Below are positions 1-27,213 of a DNA stretch of 32,000 bases, in pieces. The position numbers were made by a program, and so were the translations under genes. The notes below the pieces were generated by a model, which was not told the origin of the DNA, searched no databases, and saw only the letters and a list, made by a program, of their open reading frames with translations. Position 1 is the first letter of the stretch. Every line of letters starts with the position of its first letter. Origin of the DNA: an uncultured Actinomycetes bacterium (GTDB lineage Bacteria > Actinomycetota > Actinomycetes > S36-B12 > CAIYMF01); contig CAWJMG010000003.1 in assembly GCA_963843975.1 (NCBI GenBank), positions 1-32,000 on the forward strand. Direction: 5' to 3'.

Positions 1-963
1 GGCGACGTCACGTTCGGCCGCGAGCACGTCCCCGACTACGTCATCGTCCGCGGCAACGGGGAGCCGCTCTACACGCTCGTGAACCCGGTCGACGACGCGC
101 TCATGGGGATCACCCACGTCCTGCGCGGCGAGGACCTGCTCTCGAGCACGCCCCGCCAGCTCGCGATGTACGCCGCCCTCGCGCAGATCGGCGTCGGCGA
201 CGGCAGCACGCCGCGCTTCGGCCACCTCCCCTACGTCATGGGGGAGGGCAACAAGAAGCTCTCCAAGCGCGACCCGCAGAGCTCGCTCAACCTCTACCGC
301 GAGGAGGGCTACCTCCCCGAGGGCCTGCTCAACTACCTCGCCCTTCTCGGCTGGTCGGCCGGCGACGACCTCGAGTTCTTCTCGCCGGCCCAGCTGGCCG
401 AGCTCTTCGACCTCGGCCGCGTGCAGCCCAACCCGGCGCGCTTCGACCCGAAGAAGTGCCTCGCCATCAACGGCGACTGGATCCGTCACATCACGGCCGA
501 CGACCTGGCCGGCCGCATGCTGCCCTACCTCGAGGCCGTCGGTGCGATCTCCGGCGCCCCCACCGAGGCGCAGCAGGCCCTCATCGACGCGGCCGTGCCG
601 CTCGTCCAGGAGCGGATGGAGACGCTGCGCGGGGGCGCCGAGCAGCTGCGCTTCCTGCTCGTGGACGAGGACGACTTCGCCGTCGATGCCGAGGACCGCG
701 AGCGCGTGCTCACCGAGGACTCCCGCCCGACGCTGCAGGCGTCGTACGACGCCCTCGCGGGCCTGGAGTCGTTCGAGCACGCCTCGGTCGAGGCGGCCCT
801 GCGCGAGGCCCTCGTGGACGGCCTGGGCCTGAAGCCCAAGGTCGCCTTCGGGCCCGTTCGGGTGGCCGTGACGGGCCGTCGCATCTCGCCGCCGCTGTTC
901 GAGTCGATCGAGCTGCTCGGGCGCGATCGGACCCTCGCCCGCCTGCAGGCCGCGCTCGGCTGA
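1..963 (+). CDS. gltX: glutamate--tRNA ligase, C-terminal ~320 aa (5' end lies upstream of the window)
   Basis: Frame 1 is open from base 1 (GDVTFGREHVPDYVIVRGNGEPLYTLVNPVDDALMGITHVLRGEDLL ... KLSKRD). This is a class-I GluRS core with a KMSKS-type KLSKR loop. It is followed by tRNA-Gln and tRNA-Glu, as at mycobacterial gltS loci. Confidence 0.93.
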   Translation, partial: GDVTFGREHVPDYVIVRGNGEPLYTLVNPVDDALMGITHVLRGEDLLSSTPRQLAMYAALAQIGVGDGSTPRFGHLPYVMGEGNKKLSKRDPQSSLNLYREEGYLPEGLLNYLALLGWSAGDDLEFFSPAQLAELFDLGRVQPNPARFDPKKCLAINGDWIRHITADDLAGRMLPYLEAVGAISGAPTEAQQALIDAAVPLVQERMETLRGGAEQLRFLLVDEDDFAVDAEDRERVLTEDSRPTLQASYDALAGLESFEHASVEAALREALVDGLGLKPKVAFGPVRVAVTGRRISPPLFESIELLGRDRTLARLQAALG

Positions 964-1093
964 TCCGTTGCGGCGCTTGCCGTCCCGCGTGCGACCTCTC
1001 GGGCGGCTCTCCGGCGTACGGCTCCGGTTTGGGAACGGACCCGGCGACGGGCTACTATTTCCGGCGTCGACGATCCGCAAGGGTCGCAGGCCT

Positions 1094-1165
1094 TGGGGTA
1101 TGGGGTAATTGGCAGCCCAACTGATTCTGGTTCAGTTAGTCTAGGTTCGAGTCCTGGTACCCCAG
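1094..1165 (+). tRNA. tRNA-Gln (anticodon CUG)
   Basis: Hand-folded cloverleaf. Acceptor tggggta/tacccca, D stem gggt/gccc, anticodon stem actga/tcagt with loop ttCTGgt, T arm ctagg-ttcgagt-cctgg. CCA is not encoded. Confidence 0.9.
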
Positions 1166-1289
1166 CTGGTCGAGATCGATCGCGCGGTGGCTCACGTCAC
1201 GCGGCATGAATTTGCCGCTCCGACAAGCCCTCGGGTACCGTCTCTGACTCGCTGGCTGATCGCTCCATGAGCGGTCGAACAGCACCCAC

Positions 1290-1362
1290 GGCCCCGTTGT
1301 GTAGCGGCCTAGCACGCCGCCCTCTCAAGGCGGTAGCGCGGGTTCGAATCCCGTCGGGGCTA
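1290..1362 (+). tRNA. tRNA-Glu (anticodon CUC); its 3' portion from the anticodon loop onward is the left att repeat
   Basis: Hand-folded cloverleaf. Acceptor ggccccg/cggggct (G1-U72 wobble), D stem gtgt/gcac, anticodon stem ccgcc/ggcgg with loop ctCTCaa, T arm gcggg-ttcgaat-cccgt. CCA is not encoded. Confidence 0.9.
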
Positions 1363-1368
1363 CGTGGA
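1322..1368 (+). repeat. attL core: 47-bp direct repeat from the tRNA-Glu anticodon loop to 6 nt past the 3' end
   Basis: ctctcaaggcggtagcgcgggttcgaatcccgtcggggctacgtgga is identical to 15997-16043. Confidence 0.9.
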
Positions 1369-2025: not shown

Positions 2026-5000
2026 TCAGCGCGACGGCGGTTCGTGCCCCGCGACGGCGCGTCCCGGCCGGAGCAGCGGCAAGTCGCCCGCCAGGTCCGC
2101 GACGCGGCCTGCCGCCACGACGACGGGCTCGCGCACCGCGACGGTGGCGGGGTCGGCGGGGTCCGTGAGGAGGTTGGGGTTGCGGTAGGGCTGGGCACCT
2201 CGTCGCTGCCATCGGCTGCGCCGCTCCGCGGTCGCGGCAGTCGTTGCTGCGGCGTGCGCGGCCGTGTCCGCGTCGACCCTTGCGGTGGCCGTGGCGACAG
2301 CGGACTCGGCGCGGGCGAGGTGGCCGTCGACGATGTCGAGGTCCCGGCGTGCGGCGTGCAGGGAGGTGGTGAGGTCGCGTCGCCGGCGACGCGCCCACAC
2401 CGGCAGCTCCCCCGTCTCGAGTTCGAGGCGCACGACGTCGGCTCGGACGGTGTCGAGGCGTCGGAGCAGGTGGTCGCGGTCGGCGACGGCCCGTGCGAGG
2501 CGGGCCTGGTTGTAGCGGTGCTCCACCGGCGCCGGTGAAGCGGGTCGGGCGGCCTCGGCCGCGTCGAACCGTGCTCCGCGTGCGTGGTCGACGGCCGGGT
2601 CCAGGAGACTGTGGGCGGCGCGTTCGCGGCCGGTGGTGGCCAGGGCTCGCGTCAGCTGCTCGAGCGCATCCACCTCTGCGTGCGGTCGCTGGCTGGCGTG
2701 GTGGGGGCCGGCGTCGACATCTGCGCCGCCCGGGGTGGTGTGGAGGTGGTTCTCGTGCCGGCCGCGGGTCATGGCGACGTAGAGGTGCTCGCGGTCCAGC
2801 CCGGGGCGGGCGAGGGTGACGGCGATGTCGGTGGTGGCGCCCTGGGCGGCGTCGATGGTCGCGGCCCACCCGTACTCCGAATGCCTCGCGAGGTATGCGG
2901 CGGGCAGGTTCGTGGTGCCGCGGCCGGCGACATCCTGGACGAGCAGGCCGTCGCCGTCGGGGGTGGCGGCCAGGACGGTGAAGCGGTCGCCGTTGCGGAC
3001 CTGGTCGCCGCCGATGCGCAGGGCGGGAGTGTTCTTCTTCGTCAGGATCACGTCCCCGGCGCGCCACTCGCGGGTCTCGGGGCGGCTGCGGGTGGAGGCA
3101 GTGCGGGCGGTGACCGACAGCAGGGGCGGGCCGGTGACCTGGCCGGTGGCGATCGCGGCGGCGCGGGCTCGGGCGTTGAGGGCGGTGACGTCGGTCCAGC
3201 CGCGGGCCAGCATCAACGCATCCCGCCCGTGGGTGACGGCGTCGTGCCAGCGGTCGAACACCGCGTCGGCGGCGTCGTCCCCGTCGGCGGCGGGGTGGAT
3301 CCGGTCCTGCTCCTGGTAGGTGCGCAGGACGCTCGGGTCACCGGCGCGCAGCGCGAGCGTCGCCGCCGCCTCCCACGCGTGGGTGAAGCGGTGCAGGCCG
3401 CTGAGCTCGACCACCCGGTTCGGGACGAGGTGGGCGAGGTGCTCGAGCATCCCGCCGGGGGCGCGGATCGCCCCGATCTGGGCGGGGTCTCCGACGAGCA
3501 CGACCCGCGCCTTTGCTTCCCTAGCGCGCGCGGTGAGGGCGGCGAGGTCGGCGGTGGCGAGCATCGAGGCCTCGTCGACCAGGAGCACGTCGCCGCGGCG
3601 CAGCCGCCTCTCGTCCCGGATGCCGGGGCCGCTGTTCGTGGGTGGCTGGGTGTCGAGGGCGTTCTGCTGGGTCAGGAACCGCGCCACCGTCACCCCCGTC
3701 ACGCCGGTCGAGGCCGCGAGCTCGGAGGCGGCCCGCGCCGACGGCCCCAGCGCGAGCACGCGTTCTCCGCCCTGCGTCCAGCCGGCGACCGCCGCGCCGA
3801 GGACGGTGGTCTTCCCCGCCCCAGCCGGGGCCACCATCACCGTGACCAGGTCGCGGGAGGACACCAGCCTCACCGCGACGACCTGCTGCTCCTGCGACAG
3901 CCCCTCCCGGGCCGTCACCTGGAGAATGTTGGCGGGCAGCCGGCGGGGCGGGCGCAGCCCGTCCAGCACCGCCTCGATGACCATCGCTTCGGTGTCGACG
4001 ACCTCGCGGGAGGCGTAGCGGGCATCCGACGCCCGCGCCGTCACCCCCGGCGCATCCGCCCCCAGCGGAACAGCGCCCGCAGCAGTATCCATGAGCGCCT
4101 GCGCCGTGAGGGCCTCGACCATCGCCGCGGCCTCACGCGCATCCCGCGGCGCACCCGGGCCGGTGGCCGGGAGGCGGGCGGCCACCTGCACCGCCAGGTC
4201 CGCCGCCGACCACACCGCACCTGACCTGCCGGCCGCCGACACAGCGTCTACGAGCCACGCCTGCCCGGCGGCGAACGGCTCGCGGCCGACCTCGGCGCTT
4301 GCGTGTGCAGCCGCGGCGCCGTCGGGGTCCGTGACGGGCGCGCACGCCGTCGCGACGGAGTCGGTGACTGACTCCGTCAGGTCCCCACTCGCGTCCACCC
4401 CTGCGGCTGGCTGCTTCGGGACGTCCGCGACGGAGTCGGTGACGGAGTCCCCCACCGTCACGACGGACTCCGTCACCGCGACGCCGGTCCTCGTGACGGT
4501 GGTGACGGAGTTCGTGACGGAGTCCGCCGCGGTCGCGACGGCAGGCGTGGGAGTGCTGCCAGTGGCAGTGACGGTGCCGACAGGCCTGGTGACGGCGGTC
4601 GTGACAGTGGTGCCGTCGCTGGTGACGGTCACGGGCGAGCCGCTTCGCCCTTCGCGGGGGGTTCTGACGCCGTCGGGGCTCGCGAGGCGTGCGGACCGCT
4701 GCAGCCGCTGGGCGTCCCAGCCCAGCGCATCGGCTTGCTCCCGCCACCGGGCCCTCAGCCCGGCCTCGGGGACGGGGTGGTCCTTGGGCGGGCGGGTGGC
4801 CAGGACGGCGGTCTTGACGATCCGGGCCCGCTCCGACGGCGTGACTGGCCGCCCGAGCGCCTCCTCGGCCTGGGCGATTGTGGGGATGGCGTCGGCCATC
4901 ACCGCGGTGGTGCGGGTCGACCAGGCGGCGAGGAGCTCCTCGGGGACGCCGGCGATCTCGGCCTGCCCATGCTCGGACACCGGCCCGAAGGCGACGCCGA

Positions 5001-5641
5001 GGCGGGTGGCGAAGCTCGGTGCGCAGCGCCGCCTGGTAGAGCGCACCGGCGGCCTTCTTGTGGTGGAACACCTCGTAGCCGTCGATGGTGCGCCACACCC
5101 CGTCGGCGCAGCGGACCTTGTTCACCACCAACGCGTGCGTGTGCAGCTGCGGATCCCCGGTCCGGGACGTGGTGTGCTCGAACAGCGCCGCCGCGAACCC
5201 GGCCGTGGCGACCTGCTCGACCCCGTTGCGGCCCCGACGCGAGAACGACGCATGCGCCTCCAGGAACCCCAGCGCCACCTCCACCGCCGCCGTGTGCGCC
5301 GCCCGGACCCGAGCCGCTGTCGCGTCGTCGCCGAGCGCCCACAGCGCCGACACCGACTTCGGTGCCGAGAACGTCAGGTCGTGCCCGGTCACCGCGTCCG
5401 GACGCCACGCCCGCCCCAGCGCCGCTCCGGTGCGCGGGTGCAGGCCGCGGGCGAACAGCGCCTCCAGTTCCGCCTCCTCCACCCGCGCGCCGGATGACAG
5501 GCCGAGCTCGGGCAGGCCGGCGCCGTGCCAGCGGCCGGGCGCGTTGCCGGCCTCGGCGTAGTACTCGCACGCACCGCGGGCGACGGAGTCCTGGTAGTAC
5601 CGCCACGACGAGCGGCCGATCTTGGCACTGGACAGCACCAC
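2026..5641 (-). pseudogene. traA: TrwC/MobF-type relaxase fused to a RecD/TraA-like helicase, interrupted by a 1-nt frameshift near 5011
   Basis: The N-terminal frame (GTG start 5641 or 5638) reads VVLSSAKIGRSSWRYYQDSV ... HTTSRTGDPQLHTHALVVN, giving the catalytic YY and His-triad motifs, and runs to ...ALYQAALRTEL. The sequence continues in another frame as ATRLGVAFGPVSEHGQAEIAGVP. The helicase part has Walker A (APAGAGKTTV), Walker B (LLVDEASML), then TIDAAQGAT and VAMTRGR. Confidence 0.85.
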
Positions 5642-5734
5642 CGACCACCACCCATCATCAACCCATACGATCCGGCAAACCGTTGCAGCCCAACCGATTA
5701 CGACGATAGCAGGACGCGCGGACAATGCACATGT

Positions 5735-5750
5735 CTGCTGATCTCAGCAG
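5735..5750. promoter_or_regulatory. Perfect inverted repeat in the relaxase/RHS divergent intergenic region (candidate oriT hairpin or operator)
   Basis: ctgctga-tc-tcagcag lies in a locally low-GC non-coding stretch about 100 bp upstream of the relaxase start. Confidence 0.3.
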
Positions 5751-6005
5751 GGTTCAGCGCTATCGGAGTCGTCGTCACGGGCAGGGGCCGACGGTCGCTC
5801 GCTCCTCGGGGTCGGACGAGTCACTGGCGAGGTGTCTGGGCTCGCGCAGGTTCATGAACGCGTTGCGCCGCTCCGACTGCGCTGCGCACCGCGGACGCGG
5901 ACACATCGGCGCTCGGTAGCCCTTGCGCGTCGGTGGTCGTTGACGCGGCCGAAATCCGGGCACTACGTTCGCGAGCGCTTGAGCATCTGCAACGGGGGTT
6001 GGGCA

Positions 6006-9000
6006 GTGACCGTTCGTCGTTCGCGCGTGGTTTCCGCGCTGGGGCACTTGTCGCGGCGCGGGATGCGCGTGACGTGGGTGTCTTTGGCATCGGGTGCGCT
6101 GTGTGTGTCCCTGGTCGCCGGTATCCCCGACGCGGTCCTGGCCACCGCTCAGGCCGCTGACGCTGCGAAGGCAGTCGAAACCCCGTCACCCGCGGTGAGC
6201 GTCCCTCTCGTCGGCGCCAAGGATGTCCTGGGCGCCGACGATCGAGCGGCCGAGGCATTCCTGTCCACCAAGCGCCCAGCCCCCGTCTTCCCGGCAGCGG
6301 GTACCGCCATGGTCGAGGTGCCCGCCGCAGGCACTGCACCGGCGGATGCCGTCGGCCTTCCCGTGACCGTCGGCTTTCCCGACCCCGAACTGATCAAGAA
6401 GCTGGGGGTCGAGGACCTTCTGACCGCCGACGCTGCCGCGACGCAGGGCGAGCCGGTCAGCCGGACCGATCCGTTCACCCCACCGGCCTCCGTCAGCTCC
6501 ACGACCACGTCGACGACGGCAGATCCGCTGCCGGTACAGACCACGGTGTCAGGCAAGCCGCTGCCCGGCGACACTCCGCCCGTGGTCCCTGATCCGCCGA
6601 CAGGGCCGCCGGACATCAACGCCACCGCTCCGGCCGGGGCCGTCACGCCGTCAGCGCCGACGGCCGTTCAGGTCGAGGTGCTGGACCGCAAGACCTCCGA
6701 GGGTTTGGGGGTGTCAGGTTTCGCGTTCCTCGCCCGCCGCGCGGACAAGGGGGCCACGTCCGGCCCCGTCACCGTGACGCTGGATGCGAGCGGGTTCGCC
6801 GACGCCTACGGCGCCGGATACCTCGACAGGCTCCAGGTCCTCCGGTTCCCGGAGTGCGCGCTCGCCCCCGATGCGCTGGTCTCGGTGCCCGAATGCGGTG
6901 CCACATCGGTGATCCCCTCGGTCGTGGACCGCAAGGCCCGCACGGTCACGTTGGTGCTGCCCGCGGCCGCGGACCCCTCGGTCCCAGCAGCGCCCCTCAC
7001 GCCCGCGCCGGATCCGGTGGATCCCGGCCCGACTGCCCCGACGGCCCCGGCGACGCCGCTGGCGCCGGCCGCGCTCGACTCGACGACCATCGAACCTGCG
7101 GCGGCGACCACGGTCGACATGGCGGCCGTGGTGTCTGGGTCGTCCGGGGTGTTCGCTCTGACGGCGGGCGTCTCCAGCAGCACGGGCTCGTTCGCGGCGA
7201 CGTCGCTGAACGCGGCGGGGTCGTGGTCCGCGGGCGGGAACTCCGGCAGCATGTCGTACGACTACCCGCTGGTCCTGCCGCCGGCGACGGGCGGTGCGAC
7301 TCCGCGGGTCGCCTTGTCGTACTCGTCGGGCTCGGTGGACGGGATGACCCCGGCGAACAACACGCAGGCGTCCTGGGCCGGGCTGGGCTGGGACTTCGTC
7401 CCCGGGTTCATCGAGCGCAAGTACCTCTCGTGCAGCCTGGACGGGCATCCCGGGTACAGCGACCTGTGCTGGAAGACCTGGAACGCGACCCTGTCCCTGG
7501 GAGGGGCGTCCTATCCGCTCATCCCGGACGCGTCAGACTCCACGCACACGAACTGGTTCGTGCGGGACAACCCCGGCTACGAGGTGCACCGCGCGGTCTC
7601 CGGCCTCGCGGACCCCAACCAGTCCACGACGAAGGAGTTCTGGGTCGTCACGACCCCCGACGGCACGCAGTACACGTTCGGGCGCGGCTACGGGCAGAGC
7701 ACGACGGACCCCACGAACAGCACGTTCACGGTGCCGACGTTCTCCGACGACCCCGGCGAGCCGTCGTACTCCTCATCGGGCTGGACCGCCGGGCAGGTCA
7801 GCGCGCAGCCGTGGCGGTGGAACCTGGATCGCGTCGTCGATCCCAACGGCAACGTCACCCGGTACTACTACCTGAAGGAGAGCAACCGGTACTCCAAGCT
7901 GGGCAACAGCTCCTGGCCGATCGTGTACACCTCCGGCGGCCTGCTGGACCGCATCGAGTACGGCTCCCAGAGCGGGTCGGAGGCCAGCTTCGGTCAGGAG
8001 GTGGACTTCAACCGCCAGTACCGGTGCACCGCCCTGGACGCCAGCTGCACCGCGCCGACGAAGAACGCGACCGGCTACCCGGACGTCCCGACGGACCTGA
8101 TCTGCCCCATCTCCACGGTCTGCTCGGAGAGCTCCCCGTCGTTCTTCGACACCAAGCGCATCTCCTCGGTCACCACCCGCGCGATCAAGGACGCGGTGTG
8201 GAGGAACCTGGACACCTACACGTTCACCCACTCATGGCTGAGCCCGGCCGACTCGATCCCGCAGCTGTGGCTGAACAAGATCCAGCGCACCGGCTTCGAC
8301 GGTGCCGCCAGCAAGAACCAGCGCCCGGTCCTGTTCAACGGCGTCGCGCTGGCGAACCGCGCCGACTCGGGCGGGTCGGTGCTGCCCGCGTCGTTCTACC
8401 GCATCTCGATGGTCACGGACGAAGTCGGTGCCGAGACCTCCTTCACCTACAACCAGCCCGACCCGTGCGCGACCTTCTCCGGATGGAACGACAACGCCCA
8501 GGACTGCTACCCGGTCTACTGGACCCCGGACGGGCTGCCCAGCGGGTGGGGCGCGTTCAACAAGTGGATCCTGTCAGCCGTCTCGGTGCACGACTCGACC
8601 ACCGGCTCGCCGGACATCGTCACCACGTACACGTACAGCAACGGCGGGGCGTGGCATCACAACGACGACCCGGTCATCGACGGCACGCCGCTCACGACCT
8701 GGGACCAGTGGCGCGGCTACTCCACGGTGAAGGCGACGACCGGCTCGGGTGCCGGGCGCACGTCGGTCAAGACGCGGTACTACCGCGGCATGGACGGGGA
8801 CAAGCTCACCTCGACCACCACGAAGTCGGTGAGCGTCGTCGACGCCGACGGCACGACCACCACCGTGGACAAGGACATCCTGGCCGGCAAGGTCCGCGAG
8901 ACGCAGTCCTTCGACACGGCGAACGCCGAGATCGACGGGTCGGTCACGAGCTACACCCTCTACAACGTCAAGTTCGGGGGCACCGAGTGGCCGGACTCGG

Positions 9001-12000
9001 CCATGGTCCGCCCCACCGACTCGATGTCCCGCGAGCGGTACTACGACAGCGCGGGCGCGCAGACCCGGTTCCGGCACACGTCCACCGTGTTCGACTCCAC
9101 CTACGGCGTGCCCACGAAGGTCACCGACTTCGGCGACACCGCCTCGAGCACGGACACGACCTGCACGACGATCGACTACGTCCAGAACGCCGCGGCGTGG
9201 ATCATCGACAAGCAGGTCGAGACCACCACCGTCGACGGAGCCTGCGGCGCCGGGACCGTCGTGGGGCACACCAAGACGTACTACGACGGCGCCGCATCGA
9301 ACCTGACCGCGCCGACGGTCGGGAACGTCACGAAGTCGTTGAGCTACATCAACGGCACGGACACGACCTCGACGGTGATGGCGTACGACACGTACGGGCG
9401 CGTCGTGCGCACCAACCAGACCCTGGACGCGACGGCGACCGGCACGCCCCCGACGGGCCCGGTCGCCACCGACGGGTGGGCCACCACCCGCATCGCGTAC
9501 ACCCCGGCGTCGGGGCCCGGGTCGCCGACGCAGATCGACACCACGAACGACCTGGGCCAGGTGTCCAGCGTCAGCCCCGACGGCACCCGCGGCCTGCCGC
9601 TGTCCGAGCGCAAGGCCACCGGCACCACCACGCCGACCACGTCGTACCAGACCTCCTACGCCTACGACCCGCTCGGGCGGCTCACCGAGGTGTACCTGAA
9701 GTCCTCGACCAAGCCGTCGTACAAGTTCGCCTACTTCGATTGGAACACCGCCGGCGAGATCGCCCACGTGATAACCAGCGTGCTGACCGACGACACCGGC
9801 GCCGGGACGTACATCGACTCGGCGGACTACTACGACGGCCTGGGCCGCATCCGCGAGCACCAGGTCGAGTCCCCGGCCCAGTACACCGTCACCAAGCGGA
9901 TCATCAGCGCCACCCGGTACGACAACGAGGGCCGCGTCGCCGCCACGACGGCGGGCATCAACTCGTCGGTCGCGGTGGGCGGGTCGATGTACAACCCGGA
10001 CCCGGCCACCACGCCGTCCGAGACCCGGTACGTCTACGACGAGCAGGGACAGACCGTCTCCACGAACCTGTACTCCAGCGGCAGCTTCGAGTTCGCGACC
10101 AGCACCGCGACGTACTACGGCGACCACACGTCGGTCGTCACCCCGAAGAACGCCGCGACCGACTACGGCAAGGTCACCACCTACACCGACGTGTTCGGCA
10201 ACCCCACCTCGGTCCAGGAGGTCCTGCCCGGCTCGGTCGTGCACACGGTCGACTACGGCTACGACGCGCTGCACCGGCTCACCTCTGTCGCCACCAAGGC
10301 GGCCGCCGGCGCGCCCACGACGACGGCCTCGACCAGCTACGACCGCCTCGGGCGGGTCACCGGCAGCAGCGACCCGGACGCCGGATCCACCGCGAACACC
10401 TACGACTTCGGCGGGCGCCTGCTGGTCTCGGCCACCGCGGGCCTGCGGACCGTCACGACCTCCTACGACTCCCTCGGGCGGCCCAAGACCCGTACCTCGG
10501 CCGTAGCCGGGGCCGGCAGCAGCAGCAACACCTGGACCTACGACGCCGCGTTCCCGGGCTCGCTGGACGCCCAGTCAACCGTCGCCTACGCCAAGACGGG
10601 CGCCGCGGGGAACCCGGTCGTCGCGTCCGGGCTGCTCGCCACACCCGCCGACCGCACCTACACCGTCGCGTACAGCAACTACGACTCGCTGCAGCGCCCC
10701 CAGACCACGACCTACACCCTGCCCATCAACGAGGGCGCCCTGGGCCGCAGCTACGTCTTCGGCACCAGTTGGGACAAGGCCGGACGGGTGTCGTCGGTCG
10801 CCTCGCCCGCGGTCGGGCCGCTGCCGGCCGAGACGATCTCGTACGCGTACGACGCCAACGGGTACCCGACCACCGTCACCGGCACATACACCGCGACGAC
10901 GGCGTACACGACCCCGTACGTGCAGAACCTGAGCTACACCCCGACCGGTCAGCTTCAGACCGCGTCCCTCGGATCGGCGACCGGCGCCACGAACCTGGAC
11001 ACGACGGTCGCGGTCAACTACGGCTACGCCACCGACACGCTCTGGCTGAACCACACCGACGTCAAGATCGGCGCCGCAGGGAACGGCCTGTACCTGGCCA
11101 ACCAGGACATCACCTACGACTACGCGGGTCTCCCGACCGAGATCACCGACTCCGCGCCCGGCGTCGGCCAGACCGAGTGCTACCGCTACGACACCCAGCA
11201 GCGCCTGACCGCGTACTACACGCAGTCGGCCGCCCTGTGCGCCACCTCCGGCACGGACGCCTCGGTCGTCAACAATGCGAACGTCACATCGACGGCCGGT
11301 CCCGACGGGTACGCCGCCCTCTATACCGTCGACTACCTCGGCCAGCTCACCGGCCTCACCGAGCGCCGTCCCGCCACCAAGACCGCGACCCAGGCCACCG
11401 CGATCGTCAGCAGTCTGACGCGCGGAGGCAGCCAGCCGCACGCTGTGACCGCCGTCGCCCGAACGATCGACGGCCTTGCCGCCCCGGGCCAGACCTACGT
11501 CTACGACGGCACCGGCCGCCAGACCACGAGGACCCTGCCGGCGAACAGCCGCACTCTCGGCGACATCGCCCACGGCGGCACCTCGAACCTCACCTACGAC
11601 GGGAACGGGCGCTGGCTGTCCTCCACGGACTCCGACCCCGCCGTCCCGGCGACCGGCGTCCGCACCACCGGCTACATCTACGACGCCAACGGCACCCTGC
11701 TGGCCCGTCACGACGACGACGCTGGCGACGACCTCGCCGCTACCGGCGCCCGCCCGGGCGGGCAGCGCACTCTCTGGCTAGGCACGGGCGGATCGGCCGG
11801 CATCGGCGCCACCGGGATGGCCGGCACGGGCGGGCTGCAGATCCAGACAACCCGCAAGCCCGGAGCCACCCCGACCACGGCCGGCACCGCCAGCGCCGTC
11901 GACCCTGCCCAGCAACTGCTGACCGTGTCGCGAGCCATCGTGGCCCCCGTTCTCGCCAACGGGGCGCCGCTGCAGGTGGCCACCCACACGGCCAGTGCGC

Positions 12001-13367
12001 TGCTGTCGGCCTCCACCGCGAGCGGCGTCGTCACCCAGGCGGCCACGCCTGCCACCGGCAGGATCTGGTTCACCGTCGGCGACGCCCACGCCTCCCTCGG
12101 CGGCGCCGGCACCCCGGGCATCACCGTCGCAGGCAATGGGGCGAACACGGACGCTGCTTCACCCCAATCCCAGATGGTCACTGTCGCCGGAGCCAGCATC
12201 GCCGCCTGGCCCTCCGGGGCCTCAGGCGCAAGCGCCACCGTCGCCGGGACAGTCGGCATCCGGCGCACAACGCCGTACGGCGCCGACCGCACAGCACCCG
12301 CCACCGCGGCACCGCTGACAGGCACGATCGGAGCCACGGGTACGGCCAACACCAAGACCAACACTGCCGGCGGGATCGGCGCGCTCGGCTTCCTCAACGC
12401 GTCGGAGACCACCAACGGTGCCGAGGATGGACCCGTCCTGCCCGGCGCCGCGACGCTCGCCGGCAGCGGCTACGCGACCACCGGACTCGTTCAACTCGGC
12501 GCGCGCGGCTACGACCCAGCCCTGGGAGTCTTCACAGCGCCAGACCCACTCTCTAACCCGCTCAACCCCTCCGACGCCGGGTCCTACACCTACGCCAACT
12601 CCCGGGTTGGCATCTCCACCGATCCGACCGGGCTGCGTCCGCTGGAATGCACGGGCTCGTGCAACACCAACTACCACAAGTCCGTCAACAAGGGCCGTGA
12701 GCAGCGCAAGGAGTCGGAGGATGCCTCAGGTGGTGCTCAGGCTGCGCGCCATTTCAAGCTTCCTGTTGAGGACCAGGTCCAGAACGTCGAGCCGCAGGAA
12801 GGTCTCTCTGCCTGGCAATGGGCGGGAATCATCCTCGTTGCGGTCGTTGTCGTAGTCGTCGTTGTCGTCGCCTGCAATGCCTTCTGTGCGGCTCTAGGAG
12901 CGGCCGCATTTGAGGGCCTTGTTGCGGCCCAAACCACTGCCGTAGGTGGTGCGGCCATCTCCGCAGCCACACTGGGGAGCAAGGTCGCCGTGGACAGTTT
13001 TGGCGGGCAAGCTTCGGTTGCTGGAGCTGGTGCTGCCGCCCTCCGAACCACTGCCGCACAAGGCGCCGCCGACGATTGGCCAATCATCAGTGGGATCGTT
13101 CGAGACGCGACGAAGGGCAAGGGGAACTATGGACTTGGGTCTGGGACTGCATCCCAGGCTGAACGGGCAGGACAGGCCTGGGTTGGTGAGGGGCACAGAG
13201 TGGCCAGCGACGCCAAGACGCTAATCAGCCTGGACGGACTACGCCAGTTCCGGCCACCGAGTTTCAAGCCGAGTCTGGACTCCTGGCAGGCGAATTTTGA
13301 GCGGCGGTGGACCCCCGGAGGTCAGTGGCAGGGCAACGGTCACCTCGACGTAACGGACGTCTCGTGA
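6006..13367 (+). CDS. Secreted RHS/YD-repeat polymorphic toxin, WapA-like, with an SpvB/TcB-like N-terminal region and a variable C-terminal toxin module (about 2450 aa)
   Basis: The start is GTG 6006 (gggggt RBS) or ATG 6063. Signal peptide: MRVTWVSLASGALCVSLVAGIPDAVLATAQA/AD. SpvB-like motif: SMSYDYPLVLPPATGGATPRVALSYSSGSVDG...GLGWDF. There are about 15 YD repeats, for example YAYDPLGRLTEV, YYDGLGRIREH, YGYDALHRLTSV and YVYDGTGRQTT. RHS core end: RGYDPALGVFTAPDPL...YANSRVGISTDPTGL. Confidence 0.93.
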   Translation: MTVRRSRVVSALGHLSRRGMRVTWVSLASGALCVSLVAGIPDAVLATAQAADAAKAVETPSPAVSVPLVGAKDVLGADDRAAEAFLSTKRPAPVFPAAGTAMVEVPAAGTAPADAVGLPVTVGFPDPELIKKLGVEDLLTADAAATQGEPVSRTDPFTPPASVSSTTTSTTADPLPVQTTVSGKPLPGDTPPVVPDPPTGPPDINATAPAGAVTPSAPTAVQVEVLDRKTSEGLGVSGFAFLARRADKGATSGPVTVTLDASGFADAYGAGYLDRLQVLRFPECALAPDALVSVPECGATSVIPSVVDRKARTVTLVLPAAADPSVPAAPLTPAPDPVDPGPTAPTAPATPLAPAALDSTTIEPAAATTVDMAAVVSGSSGVFALTAGVSSSTGSFAATSLNAAGSWSAGGNSGSMSYDYPLVLPPATGGATPRVALSYSSGSVDGMTPANNTQASWAGLGWDFVPGFIERKYLSCSLDGHPGYSDLCWKTWNATLSLGGASYPLIPDASDSTHTNWFVRDNPGYEVHRAVSGLADPNQSTTKEFWVVTTPDGTQYTFGRGYGQSTTDPTNSTFTVPTFSDDPGEPSYSSSGWTAGQVSAQPWRWNLDRVVDPNGNVTRYYYLKESNRYSKLGNSSWPIVYTSGGLLDRIEYGSQSGSEASFGQEVDFNRQYRCTALDASCTAPTKNATGYPDVPTDLICPISTVCSESSPSFFDTKRISSVTTRAIKDAVWRNLDTYTFTHSWLSPADSIPQLWLNKIQRTGFDGAASKNQRPVLFNGVALANRADSGGSVLPASFYRISMVTDEVGAETSFTYNQPDPCATFSGWNDNAQDCYPVYWTPDGLPSGWGAFNKWILSAVSVHDSTTGSPDIVTTYTYSNGGAWHHNDDPVIDGTPLTTWDQWRGYSTVKATTGSGAGRTSVKTRYYRGMDGDKLTSTTTKSVSVVDADGTTTTVDKDILAGKVRETQSFDTANAEIDGSVTSYTLYNVKFGGTEWPDSAMVRPTDSMSRERYYDSAGAQTRFRHTSTVFDSTYGVPTKVTDFGDTASSTDTTCTTIDYVQNAAAWIIDKQVETTTVDGACGAGTVVGHTKTYYDGAASNLTAPTVGNVTKSLSYINGTDTTSTVMAYDTYGRVVRTNQTLDATATGTPPTGPVATDGWATTRIAYTPASGPGSPTQIDTTNDLGQVSSVSPDGTRGLPLSERKATGTTTPTTSYQTSYAYDPLGRLTEVYLKSSTKPSYKFAYFDWNTAGEIAHVITSVLTDDTGAGTYIDSADYYDGLGRIREHQVESPAQYTVTKRIISATRYDNEGRVAATTAGINSSVAVGGSMYNPDPATTPSETRYVYDEQGQTVSTNLYSSGSFEFATSTATYYGDHTSVVTPKNAATDYGKVTTYTDVFGNPTSVQEVLPGSVVHTVDYGYDALHRLTSVATKAAAGAPTTTASTSYDRLGRVTGSSDPDAGSTANTYDFGGRLLVSATAGLRTVTTSYDSLGRPKTRTSAVAGAGSSSNTWTYDAAFPGSLDAQSTVAYAKTGAAGNPVVASGLLATPADRTYTVAYSNYDSLQRPQTTTYTLPINEGALGRSYVFGTSWDKAGRVSSVASPAVGPLPAETISYAYDANGYPTTVTGTYTATTAYTTPYVQNLSYTPTGQLQTASLGSATGATNLDTTVAVNYGYATDTLWLNHTDVKIGAAGNGLYLANQDITYDYAGLPTEITDSAPGVGQTECYRYDTQQRLTAYYTQSAALCATSGTDASVVNNANVTSTAGPDGYAALYTVDYLGQLTGLTERRPATKTATQATAIVSSLTRGGSQPHAVTAVARTIDGLAAPGQTYVYDGTGRQTTRTLPANSRTLGDIAHGGTSNLTYDGNGRWLSSTDSDPAVPATGVRTTGYIYDANGTLLARHDDDAGDDLAATGARPGGQRTLWLGTGGSAGIGATGMAGTGGLQIQTTRKPGATPTTAGTASAVDPAQQLLTVSRAIVAPVLANGAPLQVATHTASALLSASTASGVVTQAATPATGRIWFTVGDAHASLGGAGTPGITVAGNGANTDAASPQSQMVTVAGASIAAWPSGASGASATVAGTVGIRRTTPYGADRTAPATAAPLTGTIGATGTANTKTNTAGGIGALGFLNASETTNGAEDGPVLPGAATLAGSGYATTGLVQLGARGYDPALGVFTAPDPLSNPLNPSDAGSYTYANSRVGISTDPTGLRPLECTGSCNTNYHKSVNKGREQRKESEDASGGAQAARHFKLPVEDQVQNVEPQEGLSAWQWAGIILVAVVVVVVVVVACNAFCAALGAAAFEGLVAAQTTAVGGAAISAATLGSKVAVDSFGGQASVAGAGAAALRTTAAQGAADDWPIISGIVRDATKGKGNYGLGSGTASQAERAGQAWVGEGHRVASDAKTLISLDGLRQFRPPSFKPSLDSWQANFERRWTPGGQWQGNGHLDVTDVS
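12636..13364 (+). other. C-terminal toxin (CT) module of the RHS protein after DPTGL: charged linker, hydrophobic poly-Val/Gly-Ala segment, and a terminal domain of about 110 aa from an unrecognised family
   Basis: GC falls to about 60% and A/T-ending codons (gtt, gta, aat, tgt, cta, gga, ttt, caa, act, agt) appear exactly after gat ccg acc ggg ctg (12621-12635). Hydrophobic segment: WAGIILVAVVVVVVVVVACNAFCAALGAAAFEGLVAA. Terminal domain: GNYGLGSGTASQAERAGQAWVGEGH...DGLRQFRPPSFKP...QANFERRW...NGHLDV. Confidence 0.7.
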
Positions 13368-13717
13368 AAGCCAAGGTGCGTCGTCTCCACAGTCCTGACG
13401 CTGACCTCGCTACGTTTGTTCCGGCCGATCCGAGCGACTTCGGAGTATTGCTCCAGATAATGGCGGGCCCGGCCGACAAGCCCGGCGAGGAGTCCTTCGA
13501 CGTCGTGGTGTGCACTCCACGCTGGCTAGGTCGCTGGATCGAGGAGAACGGTCCGACGGTCGGACGCCACTACCTGGTCGTGACCGAATACGACGAGCCG
13601 CGGATCAGGGCCTTCCTCACGGAAGCGGTGGAGTCTCCAGAAGCCGAGACCTGGCCGGAACTGGCGCTGCAAATCGGTCGGGTGGGGAAGTGGGAGTTCG
13701 AGGACTATCGACCCTGA
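13364..13717 (+). CDS. Putative cognate immunity protein (117 aa), possibly Imm8-like
   Basis: The GTG start overlaps the RHS stop (GTGA, 13364-13367). Protein: VKAKVRRLHSPDADLATFVPADPSDFGVLLQIMAGPADKPGEESFDVVVCTPRWL...WEFEDYRP. It is small, acidic and cytoplasmic-looking. GC is lower than the host. From memory, the FxxxVCTPxWL pattern resembles Pfam Imm8; this is unverified. Confidence 0.7.
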   Translation: MKAKVRRLHSPDADLATFVPADPSDFGVLLQIMAGPADKPGEESFDVVVCTPRWLGRWIEENGPTVGRHYLVVTEYDEPRIRAFLTEAVESPEAETWPELALQIGRVGKWEFEDYRP

Positions 13718-14000
13718 CCGTTTCCGGCGGCTCGAGAGGGGGCGGGTGAGGCGCGCGCAAGTCCAGGCCGCAGGTAAGGATGGCGAGGCTGGCGTGCGAA
13801 AACACTCTTCGGCGACTGGGGCTCTGTGACCGCCAGGTATCGACCACCCTGCCCGCGTCACCTCGTAGTGGGACGAGGTCCCGCGCACGACCTCGGGCTC
13901 GATGTCGCAACTGAGTGCTGACTGGCCTCACATTCGAGGCTCTGGTCGGCATCCGCGACGCTCGGGGGCTGTAGTGCCCAGCCGAGAAGGGAGGCGCACG

Positions 14001-14453
14001 ATGAGTGAGTACGATCGGATACGACTCGGCCGCCAAATTCTGGACGAAGCCCTTCAATCGCTCGCCATGCCGGTCGCAGCCCTGAATCCGGATTTCGAAT
14101 TGAGGTCAGCGAGTCCAGGGGTGCGACTGTATGCCCTTCTGCTCAAGCCGGGCGTCGCCCCATTCAGCTTTCACTTCGGGCACGAGTTGGACGTTTGGGT
14201 TGGTCCGTTCTCTGAACTCGTTGTGTTGGATGTTGCCGAGCTGCAACCGTCCGATTTGGTTGAACGCGTTCGGGCTCTGTTGGTGAGCGAGGTGCGATAT
14301 GTGCGCTCGGGGAAGACGCATCGATTGCGTCTCCAGGTTCCGGGTGGCCAGCCTTGGGTGGACTTGAAAGTTCGTAGTGTGAGCGAAAGTTCTCTGCTTC
14401 CCTACTACGAGGCGTACGCAGGTCGACGCCTCGACGAGTCAGGTCCGACGTAG
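14001..14453 (+). CDS. Hypothetical protein (150 aa); candidate orphan immunity protein
   Basis: ATG at 14001 is preceded by a strong RBS gaagggagg (13985-13993). GC is about 58-60% against about 72% background. I recognise no family. Its position downstream of an RHS toxin-immunity pair is typical of orphan immunity genes. Confidence 0.55.
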   Translation: MSEYDRIRLGRQILDEALQSLAMPVAALNPDFELRSASPGVRLYALLLKPGVAPFSFHFGHELDVWVGPFSELVVLDVAELQPSDLVERVRALLVSEVRYVRSGKTHRLRLQVPGGQPWVDLKVRSVSESSLLPYYEAYAGRRLDESGPT

Positions 14454-14649
14454 CCGCTGAGGCAACTGCCAGGGCCGGAGAAGGCCCGGCGACAGCTGGG
14501 CCGCAAGCCCACTGACTTGACCCGTCAGGTGGACGCACCACCGGTTGCCCGGCGCCCCGATGGGATGGCTGCTGATTCCGCCGATTGCCTGCCACCGTCC
14601 AACGGATGGACGTCGTGGCGCATGGCAAGCATCGGCACCTACATTGCGC

Positions 14650-15846
14650 TCACTTGCCATTCTGCGACGCAGTCCGGTGAGGAACGTCGCGAATGCCTGG
14701 CCGTTCTCGGCTGGCCAGCATGTATAGCTCCATCTTGCTCCGCCCCTCCTCGAAGCGCTCTCGCATGAGGTGCGTGTAGATCTCCGCCGTCAATGTCGGG
14801 GACTTGTGCCCGAGCCGCTGCTGCACTTCGAAGATCGTCAGGCCGGCATCGAACATGAGCGATGCCGCCGTGTGCCGAAGCGTTAGCCAAGTGACTCGTC
14901 GCCCCTCCAGGCCGGCGCGCACCACGGCTTTACGCAGGACGTCCCTGGAGAAGGTTCCGCGCAGCACGTTGGTTTCGCGGTTGCTCGTGAACACGAAGTC
15001 TTCGCGTGCGGCGTTCGGTCGATACTCCTCGAGGTGCGCCAGAAGGCTGTCCATGACCAAGCCCGGCACGGGGACGGTGCGCGAATCCTCCGTCTTGGAC
15101 ATCGCTTCCGAGAAAGTCGTGGAGCCGTTCTGGTTGACGACGACTCTGCCGAAAGTGAGCTCCTTGCGGAGCGGGTTGATGTCACATACCCGCAAGCCGA
15201 TGGCTTCGTTCCAGCGAGGGCCGAGCCAGGCGCCCATGAACACAAGCGCCTCGTAGCGACCGTTGGTCTTCAGCGCGGCGTAACGCGGATCGGGGTCGAC
15301 AATCGCCGCCACCAAGCGGTCGACCTCTTGCGCAGTCAAGACGTCGTCGAAGTTCTTACGAAGGCTGGGCAGCTTGGGGAGGGCGATGTCGATGCACGGG
15401 TCGTCGATGATGCGGTCCTTCACCGCTCGGCGCAGTGGACCGCGCAGAAGTCCGTAGCAGGCGCGCACCGACTGCGGCCCCATGCTCCGCGCGAGCTGAG
15501 CGACCCAGTCGTCGATGTCCGAGGGTCTTATGTCGCAGATGGGCCAGTCGCCCCAGTGGGGCAGCACGTGCTTCACGGCGCGCTGGTCGTCGGTGTAGCG
15601 CCGGCTGGCGGATATCTGGCGCGCCGCAGCCCAGGGGGCGTAGTAGTCGGCGAAGCGGACCTCGCGCTTCTCGCGAGGGACGAAGCGTCCGCGGCGCAAC
15701 TCCATCTCAACCTCGGCCTTGCGGTCGAGAGCCGATTCGGGCGGTCGGCGCTGGGAGCCGCCGCGGAACCGCTCGGTGCGCTCGCTGCCGTCGCGCTCGC
15801 GGTAGCGCAGGTCCCAGCCGCCTGACCGGAAGCGGAGACTGGCCAC
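14650..15846 (-). CDS. int: Tyrosine recombinase / phage-type integrase
   Basis: VASLRFRSGGWDLRYRERDGSERTERF N-terminal arm-binding-type domain. Catalytic region: AWLGPRWNEAIGLRVCDI, TLRHTAASLMFDAG, QQRLGHKSPTLTAEIYTHL (R..HxxR..Y). The preferred start is GTG 15846 behind the RBS aagggagga. Alternatives are GTG 15876 or the ORF start at 15963. Confidence 0.9.
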   Translation of the reverse strand: MASLRFRSGGWDLRYRERDGSERTERFRGGSQRRPPESALDRKAEVEMELRRGRFVPREKREVRFADYYAPWAAARQISASRRYTDDQRAVKHVLPHWGDWPICDIRPSDIDDWVAQLARSMGPQSVRACYGLLRGPLRRAVKDRIIDDPCIDIALPKLPSLRKNFDDVLTAQEVDRLVAAIVDPDPRYAALKTNGRYEALVFMGAWLGPRWNEAIGLRVCDINPLRKELTFGRVVVNQNGSTTFSEAMSKTEDSRTVPVPGLVMDSLLAHLEEYRPNAAREDFVFTSNRETNVLRGTFSRDVLRKAVVRAGLEGRRVTWLTLRHTAASLMFDAGLTIFEVQQRLGHKSPTLTAEIYTHLMRERFEEGRSKMELYMLASRERPGIRDVPHRTASQNGK

Positions 15847-15863
15847 GGCTCCTCCCTTGAAGT

Positions 15864-15887
15864 TGATCTTGACCACATATTGACCAC
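15864..15887. promoter_or_regulatory. Candidate arm-type integrase sites in the int promoter / 5' region
   Basis: tgatcttgaccacatattgaccac differs at one base from 1417-1440 at the other end of the element. Confidence 0.5.
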
Positions 15888-15996
15888 GGAAGCGCCGACA
15901 TGAGCCGATAGGACGCGGCAGGAGCCGACAGTAAAAGCCCAGGTCAGAGGCCCATTCTCGCACTTCCGACGGATCCCGTGAAGGGGCTGGAATGCG

Positions 15997-16043
15997 CTCT
16001 CAAGGCGGTAGCGCGGGTTCGAATCCCGTCGGGGCTACGTGGA
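15997..16043 (+). repeat. attR core: orphan 3' half of tRNA-Glu (displaced original copy)
   Basis: Identical to 1322-1368. The upstream bases (aatgcg) do not form the 5' half of a tRNA. Confidence 0.9.
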
Positions 16044-16044
16044 C

Positions 16045-16082
16045 GAAGGCCCGGATCCCGTGGATCCGGGCCTTCTCGCTTG
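16045..16082 (+). terminator. Original chromosomal tRNA-Glu terminator hairpin
   Basis: Perfect 14-bp stem gaaggcccggatcc-cgt-ggatccgggccttc followed by tcgcttgt. Confidence 0.65.
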
Positions 16083-26401: not shown

Positions 26402-26781
26402 GTACGAATTCAACCGCGGCCCTCCGACAGGCGTCAACCCCCAAAGCGCAGCAACCGCAACGGATTCCGAGGCCTCTTGTCCACAGGACAAGCCGTACGG
26501 CGGGTCGTCCACAGGTAGCACCGCGAGGGTGTCCGGATCGTCGACCCGGCCCCTCGCAGATGCCGTCCGGACGGGCCTGCGCGGGCGGGAGGCCGTGCGC
26601 TCCAGGGGGTTTCGCCGCGTGACCTGCACCACTCCGACCAGTTGTCAAGGGCCTCTCGGCCCGAAAGCCGTTGGGATCAGGACACTTTCGCCCCGCGTGT
26701 CGTCGGGCGATCAGTGCACGGGGCCGGTTAGGTTCTGGTGAGCGCCGGACGGTGGGTCCGGCCGCACCCCGGAGGATTCCT

Positions 26782-27213
26782 GTGGCAGAGAGCGTCAACA
26801 AGGCAGAGCTGGTCGACCGTCTCGCGGCTCGCCTGGACGTCACCAAGAAGCTCGCGGGCGAGGCCGTCGAGGCCATCGTCGACGAGATCACCAAGTCGGT
26901 CGCCAAGGGCGACAAGGTCGCGATCAGCGGCTTCGGCGTGTTCGAGAAGGCCGACCGTGCCGCTCGCGTGGGCCGCAACCCGCAGACCGGCGCGACCGTG
27001 AAGATCAAGGCCACCTCGGTGCCGAAGTTCCGCGCCGGCGCCGAGTTCAAGGCCACCGTGGCCGGCAAGAAGAAGGCCGCCCCGGCGAAGAAGGCCGCCC
27101 CGGCCAAGAAGGCTGCTCCGGCCGCCAAGAAGGCCGCTCCGGCCAAGAAGGCTGCTCCGGCCGCCAAGAAGGCCGCTCCGGCCAAGAAGGCCGCTCCGGC
27201 CCGCAAGAGGTGA
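26782..27213 (+). CDS. hup: HU-type nucleoid protein with a lysine/alanine/proline-rich C-terminal tail (HupB/Hlp-like)
   Basis: GTG 26782 lies 5 nt after ggagga. HU fold: VNKAELVDRLAARLDVTKKLAGEAVEAIVDEITKSVAKGDKVAISGFGVFEKADRAARVGRNPQTGATVKIKATSVPKFRAGAEFK. It is followed by PAKKAA repeats. Confidence 0.93.
   Translation: MAESVNKAELVDRLAARLDVTKKLAGEAVEAIVDEITKSVAKGDKVAISGFGVFEKADRAARVGRNPQTGATVKIKATSVPKFRAGAEFKATVAGKKKAAPAKKAAPAKKAAPAAKKAAPAKKAAPAAKKAAPAKKAAPARKR
27067..27210 (+). repeat. In-frame tandem 18/21-bp repeats encoding (K)KAAPA(A)KK
   Basis: aagaaggccgc(c/t)ccggcc(gcc) is reiterated about 7 times within hup. Confidence 0.9.

Follow-up and report, generated by a model that had tools for sequence, protein, structure and literature searches.

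We analysed a 32,000-nt stretch of DNA from an uncultured Actinomycetes bacterium (GenBank assembly GCA_963843975.1, contig CAWJMG010000003.1, positions 1 to 32,000 of the forward strand), referred to below as the window, which is about 70% G+C across its whole length. The window most probably holds an integrative and mobilizable element (IME), about 14.7 kb long and inserted at the 3' end of a tRNA-Glu(CTC) gene, with a backbone of excisionase (xis), MobF relaxase-helicase and tyrosine integrase (int), and with a giant RHS toxin gene and its immunity gene as the only recognisable payload; on this reading the toxin would be exported, enclosed in a cocoon formed by its own polypeptide, and delivered to neighbouring bacteria. 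The element contains xis, the MobF relaxase gene, the RHS gene, an Imm8 immunity gene, an orphan open reading frame (ORF) of 150 aa and int. The ORF list gave no further large ORF within the element, and the RHS gene takes up about 7.3 of the 14.7 kb, or half.

Layout of the RHS gene

The RHS gene lies in a single uninterrupted ORF (5832-13367, +) with two equally plausible starts, GTG at 6006 and ATG at 6063, and is given here as 6006-13367 (+). Read from ATG 6063 it encodes 2434 aa, and an identical database protein of 2434 aa (P0001) starts at this same ATG. From either start the N-terminus reads by eye as a signal peptide (about 6063-6155, predicted), with a basic stretch, a hydrophobic core (VSLASGALCVSLVAGIP) and a cleavage-type motif AQA/AD. 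It is followed by an SpvB-like region (7239-7976), YD repeats (9384-11702), an insertion rich in Ala, Gly and Thr (11730-12257), the RHS core ending in DPTGL (12474-12635) and a variable C-terminal region (12636-13364). Eighteen YD-type repeats were counted with a regular expression at residues 1108-1873. The core terminus, RGYDPALGVFTAPDPL...STDPTGL, is present with alignment columns that are invariant in seven close homologues and diverge straight afterwards; the stretch RGYDPALGVF...DPTGL is invariant in this seven-sequence alignment and was also aligned with the family profile described below. The Ala/Gly/Thr-rich expansion between the last YD repeat and the core, about 175 aa long and modelled with low confidence, is kept in the sublineage carried by IMEs and absent from the wider RHS family.

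An earlier note on this DNA, made from the sequence itself, had described a giant gene filling half of the element, with a signal peptide, about 15 YD repeats, the RHS core terminus, a variable C-terminal module and an overlapping small gene as candidate antidote. Its coordinates were correct and all of these features were recovered, the signal peptide by reading of the N-terminus and the repeats in a different number.

Homology and predicted structure of the cocoon

More than 100 actinobacterial proteins of 2000-2600 aa, named as RHS core or polymorphic-toxin HINT proteins, matched the window protein with E values of 1e-100 to 1e-174, and identity to this wider actinobacterial RHS family is about 30% over about 70% of the length, with E of about 1e-160. 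Of the hidden Markov models run on the query, TIGR01643 scored above its cutoff (21.2 against 15.8 bits) and Pfam SpvB was marginal (22.3 against 22 bits). A profile built from 16 members of the family aligned with the window protein over positions 1-2042 with a score of 1930 bits.

Residues 991-2190, which cover two thirds of the shell, were modelled with AlphaFold from 35 sequences. The model consists almost entirely of beta hairpins (mean predicted local distance difference test score (pLDDT) 74.7, predicted template modelling score (pTM) 0.77). Foldseek matched it to Tse5, TcdB2-TccC3 (4O9X, TM 0.61), Salmonella and Advenella Rhs cores, RhsA, RhsP, teneurins and YenBC with E values of 1e-16 to 1e-29, and each of the top 40 matches was an Rhs, Tc or teneurin structure or a related YD shell. 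Searching the PDB by sequence returned weak Rhs matches for the whole protein and nothing for the toxin domain or Imm8. The model thus supports a giant RHS protein with a predicted closed YD-shell cocoon of the TcB-TcC/Rhs type. The structure prediction, which the earlier note had named in advance as a possible refutation, came out in favour of a cocoon, while the profile searches gave a mixed result, with TIGR01643 above cutoff, SpvB at the margin, two further models below cutoff and the family profile strongly positive.

The predicted C-terminal toxin domain and its immunity gene

The seven close homologues are 47-79% identical up to DPTGL and unrelated to one another beyond it; one of them carries PT-HINT and another, by eye, an HAE...CPAC deaminase-like motif. 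Within the variable region of the window protein there is a strongly hydrophobic segment (WAGIILVAVVVVVVVVVACNAFCAALGAAAF; 12798-12926, +; Kyte-Doolittle 19-residue means up to 3.26), which may serve for membrane entry or as a pre-toxin segment. Similar hydrophobic stretches follow the core in P0004, P0012, P0013 and P0018.

The protein ends in a domain of about 95 aa (13053-13364, +) for which 58 homologues were found, mostly short ORFs or fragments of 66-181 aa, seven of them named by their sources as 'filamentous hemagglutinin'. Organism labels were attached to only three of the homologues, from Kapaibacterium, Akkermansiaceae and Actinomycetes metagenome-assembled genomes (MAGs). The conserved motifs are KGKGNFGLG, S.DGLRQFRPP, QANFE and GNGHLD, with DGLRQFR and QANFE at least 90% conserved across 51 sequences, and the window domain has all of the conserved residues (K, DGLRQFR, QANFE and GNGH). 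Published analysis gives Ntox7 the signature 'DGx+xhR, N', predicts it to be an RNase of the BECR fold with Imm8 as its predominant immunity protein, classes it as an interbacterial polymorphic toxin and associates it with carriers of the RHS and TcdB/TcaC types (Zhang et al. 2012, PMC3482391). The window motifs fit this signature, as a motif match only, and the C-terminal domain is predicted to be an Ntox7-type RNase. No Pfam or NCBIfam model recognised the domain, and NCBIfam searches with all 51 toxin homologues returned no family. AlphaFold modelled it with a pLDDT of 93, so that a confident fold model is now assigned to this unannotated, Imm8-partnered, Ntox7-like domain of about 95 aa.

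The immunity gene (13364-13717, +) encodes 117 aa and matches Pfam Imm8 (PF15586) at 4.8e-34 with 117.4 bits over the full profile (1-114). Its GTG start at 13364 overlaps the stop codon of the RHS gene as GTGA. As in the described Ntox7/Imm8 pairs, the DGx+xhR and N motifs of the toxin are accompanied by a 'WEa' motif at the C-terminus of the immunity protein, here KWEFEDYRP. In three unrelated loci the gene for a toxin homologue of 65% identity (P0131) likewise overlaps by 4 nt with a downstream Imm8 gene that encodes 117 aa.

The G+C content is 63-66% in the stretch made up of the C-terminal toxin, Imm8, the orphan ORF and int, compared with 70% for the body of the RHS gene, where G+C at third codon positions (GC3) is 0.93. 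This lower value is as expected for a swapped-in cassette.

Boundaries of the element

Two 50-nt direct repeats (1319-1368 and 15994-16043, repeat family D5), identical at 49 of 50 positions, consist of the final 45 nt of tRNA-Glu followed by 5 nt. The tRNA-Glu(CTC) gene itself, the integration target, was located at 1290-1363 (+) with ARAGORN. Because the repeat stands at both ends, each copy with its own G+C hairpin, the two copies were assigned as attL, the copy of the tRNA-Glu 3' end (1319-1368), and attR, the displaced chromosomal 3' end (15994-16043), and they bound 14.7 kb.

The two att copies carry different G+C-rich hairpins behind them. Read from the sequence, the one directly after attL (1369-1397) is supplied by the element and the one directly after attR (16044-16075) is a chromosomal terminator hairpin. 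The element seems to bring its own terminator-like hairpin for the rebuilt tRNA-Glu, with the original chromosomal hairpin remaining behind attR. Just inside both ends there is a tandem TTGACCAC motif (1417-1443 and 15864-15890, the latter just upstream of int; repeat family D13, 93% identical) with the full form TTGACCAC(N2)ATTGACCAC, which also occurs beside tRNA-Glu in the related element L007 (5062-5080). These tandem motifs are probably arm-type binding sites for Int and Xis.

Linkage of the RHS sublineage to integrative elements

The window protein belongs to a sublineage whose members are 47-84% identical to one another and which is distinct within the wider RHS family. Each of the six close RHS relatives with readable context has xis together with an integrase or relaxase in its neighbourhood, and a MobF relaxase is present in five of these contexts; in a control set of 20 metagenomic loci with RHS genes of about 30% identity, none has a relaxase or xis homologue in its flanks. 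The earlier suggestion that the element is dedicated to its toxin gains support from these relatives.

The locus L002 (RHS 71% identical) has direct repeats 14.9 kb apart at a tRNA-Pro and contains xis, int, an intact relaxase, an RHS gene with PT-HINT, a small ORF and a TacA1 gene beside GNAT. In L003, which holds the RHS cluster representative (84%), the RHS gene is accompanied by eight small ORFs, including DUF416 and Ntox27, and by an intact relaxase, xis and int. The loci L004-L006 (RHS 56%) have an 11.1-kb element at tRNA-Phe with only xis, RHS and int, and in L087 and L088 (RHS 71% and 49%) a divergent relaxase lies directly upstream of the RHS gene. The same RHS lineage is thus found in sister elements at tRNA-Glu, tRNA-Pro and tRNA-Phe with different toxin tips, and one RHS sublineage appears, from these comparisons, to be consistently carried by elements of the window type, which we regard as the most useful new point of this analysis.

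Two observations on these relatives may be added. At tRNA-Phe in L004 (8549-19707) only xis, a 2420-aa RHS gene and an integrase gene are present, making an even more minimal, 'toxin-only' integrative element. In L002 (18467-19259) the TacA1-type antitoxin gene adjoins the GNAT acetyltransferase gene; if these form a toxin-antitoxin pair, this element would have a second, intracellular addiction module beside its RHS toxin.

The search was also made from the side of the backbone, where alignment of the relaxase yielded 80 genomic loci. The xis-relaxase module of the window is 85-86% identical in nucleotide sequence to those of L007 and L076. Very divergent giant YD-repeat ORFs were found upstream of, and divergent from, the relaxase in L015 (2200 aa, with matches to PA14 and RHS_repeat), L076 (more than 2008 aa) and L017 (1792 aa). 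At an E threshold of 1e-6, none of the related loci contained a detectable relative of the window integrase. The element is thus a mosaic, which shares its xis-relaxase module and its RHS module with relatives but not its integrase.

One explanation of this linkage is that the YD protein serves transfer of the element, for example as an adhesin holding donor and recipient together, so that its place beside the relaxase would reflect function rather than cargo. A giant YD ORF is indeed divergent from the relaxase in the window, L002, L087, L088, L015, L017 and L076, but the full toxin layout is kept (core, DPxGL, variable C-terminus and small downstream ORF), the relaxase of L003 is downstream and not adjacent to the RHS gene, L004 has no relaxase, several backbone relatives are without any giant YD protein, and no adhesin domain was detected in the window RHS protein. 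We consider a role in transfer highly improbable and prefer to read the RHS gene as a toxin carried by the element.

Mobility genes and the condition of the relaxase

The xis gene (1670-1894, -) encodes a 74-aa excisionase-type protein with an HTH_17 domain (Pfam, 29.3 bits against a cutoff of 27). Homologues 59-92% identical to it adjoin relaxases in at least 14 related loci, and xis is the immediate neighbour of tRNA-Glu in the window, L007 and L010. The integrase gene (14650-15846, -; Pfam Phage_integrase, 2e-17) encodes 398 aa from a GTG start preceded by what reads as a ribosome-binding site (GGGAGGAG), and a gene of 398 aa was also called at this position in L001, an independent short-read assembly with the same sequence (window 5634-16026). 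The L001 contig breaks exactly at the start of the relaxase and inside attR.

The MobF/TrwC relaxase-helicase gene (2026-5638, -) was recognised by the NCBIfam MobF model and by AAA_30, and MobF relaxases of about 40% identity are found on small plasmids of Corynebacterium, Mycobacterium and Iamia. Positions 5-216 of the MobF profile match in the ORF at 4133-5725 (199.6 bits), and positions 216-299 together with AAA_30 match in the ORF at 2026-5046. A tblastn search with the intact relaxase of L003 placed the change of frame between 5015 and 5013. Three 75-nt tandem repeats (4351-4525, family D6) lie in the linker of the relaxase and encode peptide repeats of the TESVTDSV type; the linker of the L002 relaxase is similarly VTD-rich. 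The intergenic region between the divergent relaxase and RHS genes (5639-6005) is, by position alone, where a promoter and the origin of transfer (oriT) would be expected. As the element is without coupling-protein or mating-pore genes, a helper conjugation system would be needed for its transfer.

Several findings weigh against the reading of the locus as a mobile, RHS-bearing element. A one-base frameshift at about 5014 splits the relaxase into a 208-aa N-terminal piece and a separate helicase ORF, and the sole independent assembly, L001, begins at window position 5634 and so gives no coverage of 5014. No oriT was identified, an inverted-repeat search of 5600-6100 having returned only weak repeats. 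On the query alone Pfam RHS_repeat scored 18.2 bits (cutoff 22) and TIGR03696, over positions 25-76, scored 30.2 bits (cutoff 32.5); since the direct scores are near or below cutoff, we relied on the family profile and the structure model. The model of the toxin domain has no significant structure match in the PDB (best E 0.16), so that the assignment as a BECR-fold RNase rests on the published motif and the immunity partner. Some of the closest relatives of the relaxase (L011, L012 and L016) carry AbiEi, insertion sequence elements and Fic instead of an RHS gene, which means that RHS is a frequent payload of this backbone family and not a universal one; the idea of a universal payload was rejected on these three loci.

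The frameshift bears most directly on the first alternative, in which the island would be decaying and immobile, its relaxase a genuine pseudogene and its RHS-Imm8 pair a chromosomal locus for competition that has stopped moving. The lesion divides MobF at profile position 216 of 299 and cuts it off from the helicase, and the site itself (CTTCGCCACCCGCC) is not one of the long homopolymers at which sequencing errors typically arise. Against decay stand att repeats that are identical at 49 of 50 positions, intact int and xis genes and an intact RHS ORF of 7.3 kb, and L004 shows that a unit of int, xis and RHS without a relaxase also exists. Both halves of the relaxase still form open reading frames with good conservation (76% and 50-52% identity to L003), which points to a very recent lesion or an assembly error. 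We therefore regard decay as possible, if rather doubtful, and retain the reading of the locus as an IME. The break at about 5014 is a real one-base frameshift or an assembly error, and this particular copy may be immobile or mis-sequenced. The position of the L001 contig break could also mean that the genome holds a second, related copy of the relaxase; the MAG JBFWNE01 has two such elements (L031 and L076). The earlier description, of an element integrated at a tRNA whose int, xis and MobF relaxase genes are joined by no recognisable cargo besides the toxin module, was borne out, except that the relaxase is not an intact ORF here, and the term 'mobilizable' accordingly holds for the element family and not for this frameshifted copy.

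Comparison with known toxin systems

Actinobacterial RHS core and PT-HINT proteins, from Streptomyces, Micromonospora, Kribbella and others, have the same order of signal peptide, conserved N-terminal domain, SpvB-like region, YD shell, core, DPxGL and variable C-terminal toxin, whereas the window protein belongs to the distinct sublineage described above and has no PT-HINT domain.

WapA of Bacillus subtilis has a Sec-type signal peptide, RHS repeats and a C-terminal nuclease-type toxin, with the small immunity gene wapI directly downstream. The window protein likewise has a signal peptide, RHS repeats, a C-terminal toxin and a downstream immunity gene in a Gram-positive cell, and it probably works in a similar way, by analogy of layout. 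It differs in that its toxin and immunity families are Ntox7-like and Imm8 and its shell is of TcB-TcC size (about 1800 aa). Scanned with Pfam both in full and over residues 1-479, the window protein showed only the weak SpvB match and no cell-wall-binding domain, and membership of the WapA family was rejected on this basis. The label 'WapA-like' used earlier is therefore apt as an analogy and not as a family assignment, the predicted cocoon being closest to TcB-TcC. To our knowledge, WapA has not been described as carried by an IME.

The predicted beta-hairpin spiral superposes (Foldseek E 1e-25 to 1e-29) on the shells of TcB-TcC (TcdB2-TccC3, 4O9X) and of type VI secretion system (T6SS) effectors such as RhsA (7Q97) and Tse5 (8CP6), which share with it a core with the DPxGL self-cleavage motif. 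Unlike these, the window protein is a single polypeptide with a signal peptide and has no candidate TcA, PAAR, VgrG or T6SS. The T6SS is a machinery of diderm type and is not expected in a Gram-positive cell. Neither the element nor those flanking ORFs of the window that were scanned included a candidate TcA gene, and membership of the Tc (ABC) toxins was rejected for lack of a TcA.

The possibility of a component of a Tc-type toxin aimed at eukaryotic cells rather than at bacteria was weighed all the same. The best structural superposition is with the TcdB2-TccC3 fusion and there is the marginal SpvB match, yet the sole unassigned ORF of the element, at 150 aa, is too small to encode a TcA, the scanned genes on the flanks have housekeeping functions, the toxin gene is coupled in translation to an immunity gene of its own, and the toxin domain has several homologues named 'filamentous hemagglutinin' by their sources and is classed as an interbacterial polymorphic toxin (PMC3482391). 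We give a eukaryotic target very little credence and keep to an antibacterial toxin. It is equally implausible that the RHS gene has become an inactive relic encoding a surface protein with a defunct toxin tip, for although the toxin fold matches no solved nuclease, the 7.3-kb ORF is uninterrupted with a GC3 of 0.93, the toxin domain keeps all conserved residues, and Imm8 is intact and coupled to the toxin gene.

Neither a CdiB transporter nor a CdiA with filamentous hemagglutinin repeats is present in the element, and membership of the contact-dependent inhibition (CDI) systems (CdiB/CdiA, type V secretion) was rejected for want of CdiB; only the toxin tip resembles proteins source-named as filamentous hemagglutinin. 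The cdi genes occur on genomic islands and plasmids, and a CDI system has been shown experimentally to stabilise a plasmid (PMC4927057). Polymorphic and contact-dependent toxins are documented on plasmids, prophages (Rhs and T6SS effectors on Mx-alpha), transposons and integrative and conjugative elements (PMC10047993). In these mobile loci, as would be expected for the window, toxin and immunity gene move as a unit and loss of the element exposes the cell to the toxin of its siblings; the window differs in its vehicle, a minimal tRNA-integrating IME with int, xis and a MobF relaxase only, in Actinomycetota, of which the toxin gene alone makes up half. In PLSDB, 125 plasmid records encode this RHS family, 112 of them from Streptomyces. 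The earlier note had presented the combination as uncharacterised in high-GC Actinobacteria. Our searches of the open-access literature turned up no report of an IME from actinobacteria with an RHS gene at its centre, and to that extent the statement stands, but it was overstated in view of the documented toxins on mobile DNA (PMC10047993) and the 125 PLSDB plasmids. Toxins on mobile elements and their stabilising effect are already documented, and the window element is a tidy new example rather than a new kind of system or principle.

Flanking genes and the orphan reading frame

Upstream of tRNA-Glu lie gltX, encoding glutamyl-tRNA synthetase (79-963; Pfam matches to tRNA-synt_1c and an anticodon-binding domain), and tRNA-Gln (1094-1166, ARAGORN). 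By Pfam the flanking genes on both sides are housekeeping genes, and no conjugation genes were found among the flanking ORFs scanned. The left flank has 80% nucleotide identity to a MAG labelled Candidatus Nanopelagicales (L010), in which positions 6465-7151 have the same neighbourhood of gltX, tRNA-Gln and tRNA-Glu as window 1-1368. In L010 the tRNA-Glu holds another member of the relaxase/xis family of elements, and tRNA-Glu thus looks like a recurrent hotspot of integration. About 9 kb outside the element a DUF222 gene (25019-26632, -) adjoins a gene for an HU-like DNA-binding protein (26671-27213, +). DUF222 is of the 13E12/HNH-endonuclease type, which is often tied to mobile DNA in actinobacteria.

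Within the element, the region between Imm8 and int (13718-14649) has a G+C content of 63.5% and gave only noise in tblastx comparisons with related loci. It contains the orphan ORF (14001-14453, +), which has a strong ribosome-binding site, GAAGGGAGG, 6 nt upstream of its ATG and G+C values of 0.70/0.42/0.63 at the three codon positions. The ORF had no Pfam or NCBIfam match and no homologue among 5.8 billion proteins, and the automatic gene call on L001 placed a 71-aa ORF on the opposite strand instead; its coding status is uncertain.

Proposed mechanism and significance

We propose that the 2434-aa protein would be exported by way of its N-terminal signal peptide, with residues of about 390-2190 predicted to fold into a closed YD-repeat cocoon of the TcB-TcC/Rhs type. 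The cocoon would enclose the C-terminal region, and release would follow conserved aspartyl self-cleavage at DPTGL, as suggested by solved Rhs and Tc proteins. The hydrophobic segment and the Ntox7-type domain of about 95 aa would then enter a neighbouring bacterium, where the predicted BECR-fold RNase would halt growth. Imm8, a clear member of its family and co-translated from the overlapping gene, would shield carriers of the element, and the targets would be cells from which the element has been lost and neighbours that have never carried it. Because toxin and antidote travel with int, xis and relaxase, the element would be stabilised and its carriers favoured; such addiction-like stabilisation is suggested by analogy with the work on CDI (PMC4927057).

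With three mobility genes, a toxin gene of 7.3 kb and one antidote gene, the locus comes close to the minimum for a 'weapon on a vehicle'. Stabilisation of an element by a contact toxin has so far been shown mainly for CDI on plasmids in E. coli, and the window element offers a compact natural system in which to ask whether a secreted contact toxin stabilises and spreads an integrative element in Gram-positive high-GC bacteria. The same system raises a second question, namely how an RHS cocoon delivers its toxin across the actinobacterial envelope with neither a T6SS nor a TcA partner. For the family as a whole we put forward, tentatively and as less likely than the reading of this one locus, the idea of 'killer IMEs', in which a lineage of giant, Sec-exported RHS toxins would be the regular, co-evolving payload of a minimal tRNA-integrating IME family in Actinomycetota rather than an occasional one, toxin tips would be exchanged between elements, the conserved divergent arrangement of the RHS and relaxase genes might even tie expression of the toxin to transfer, and persistence and spread would depend on the killing of element-free cells.

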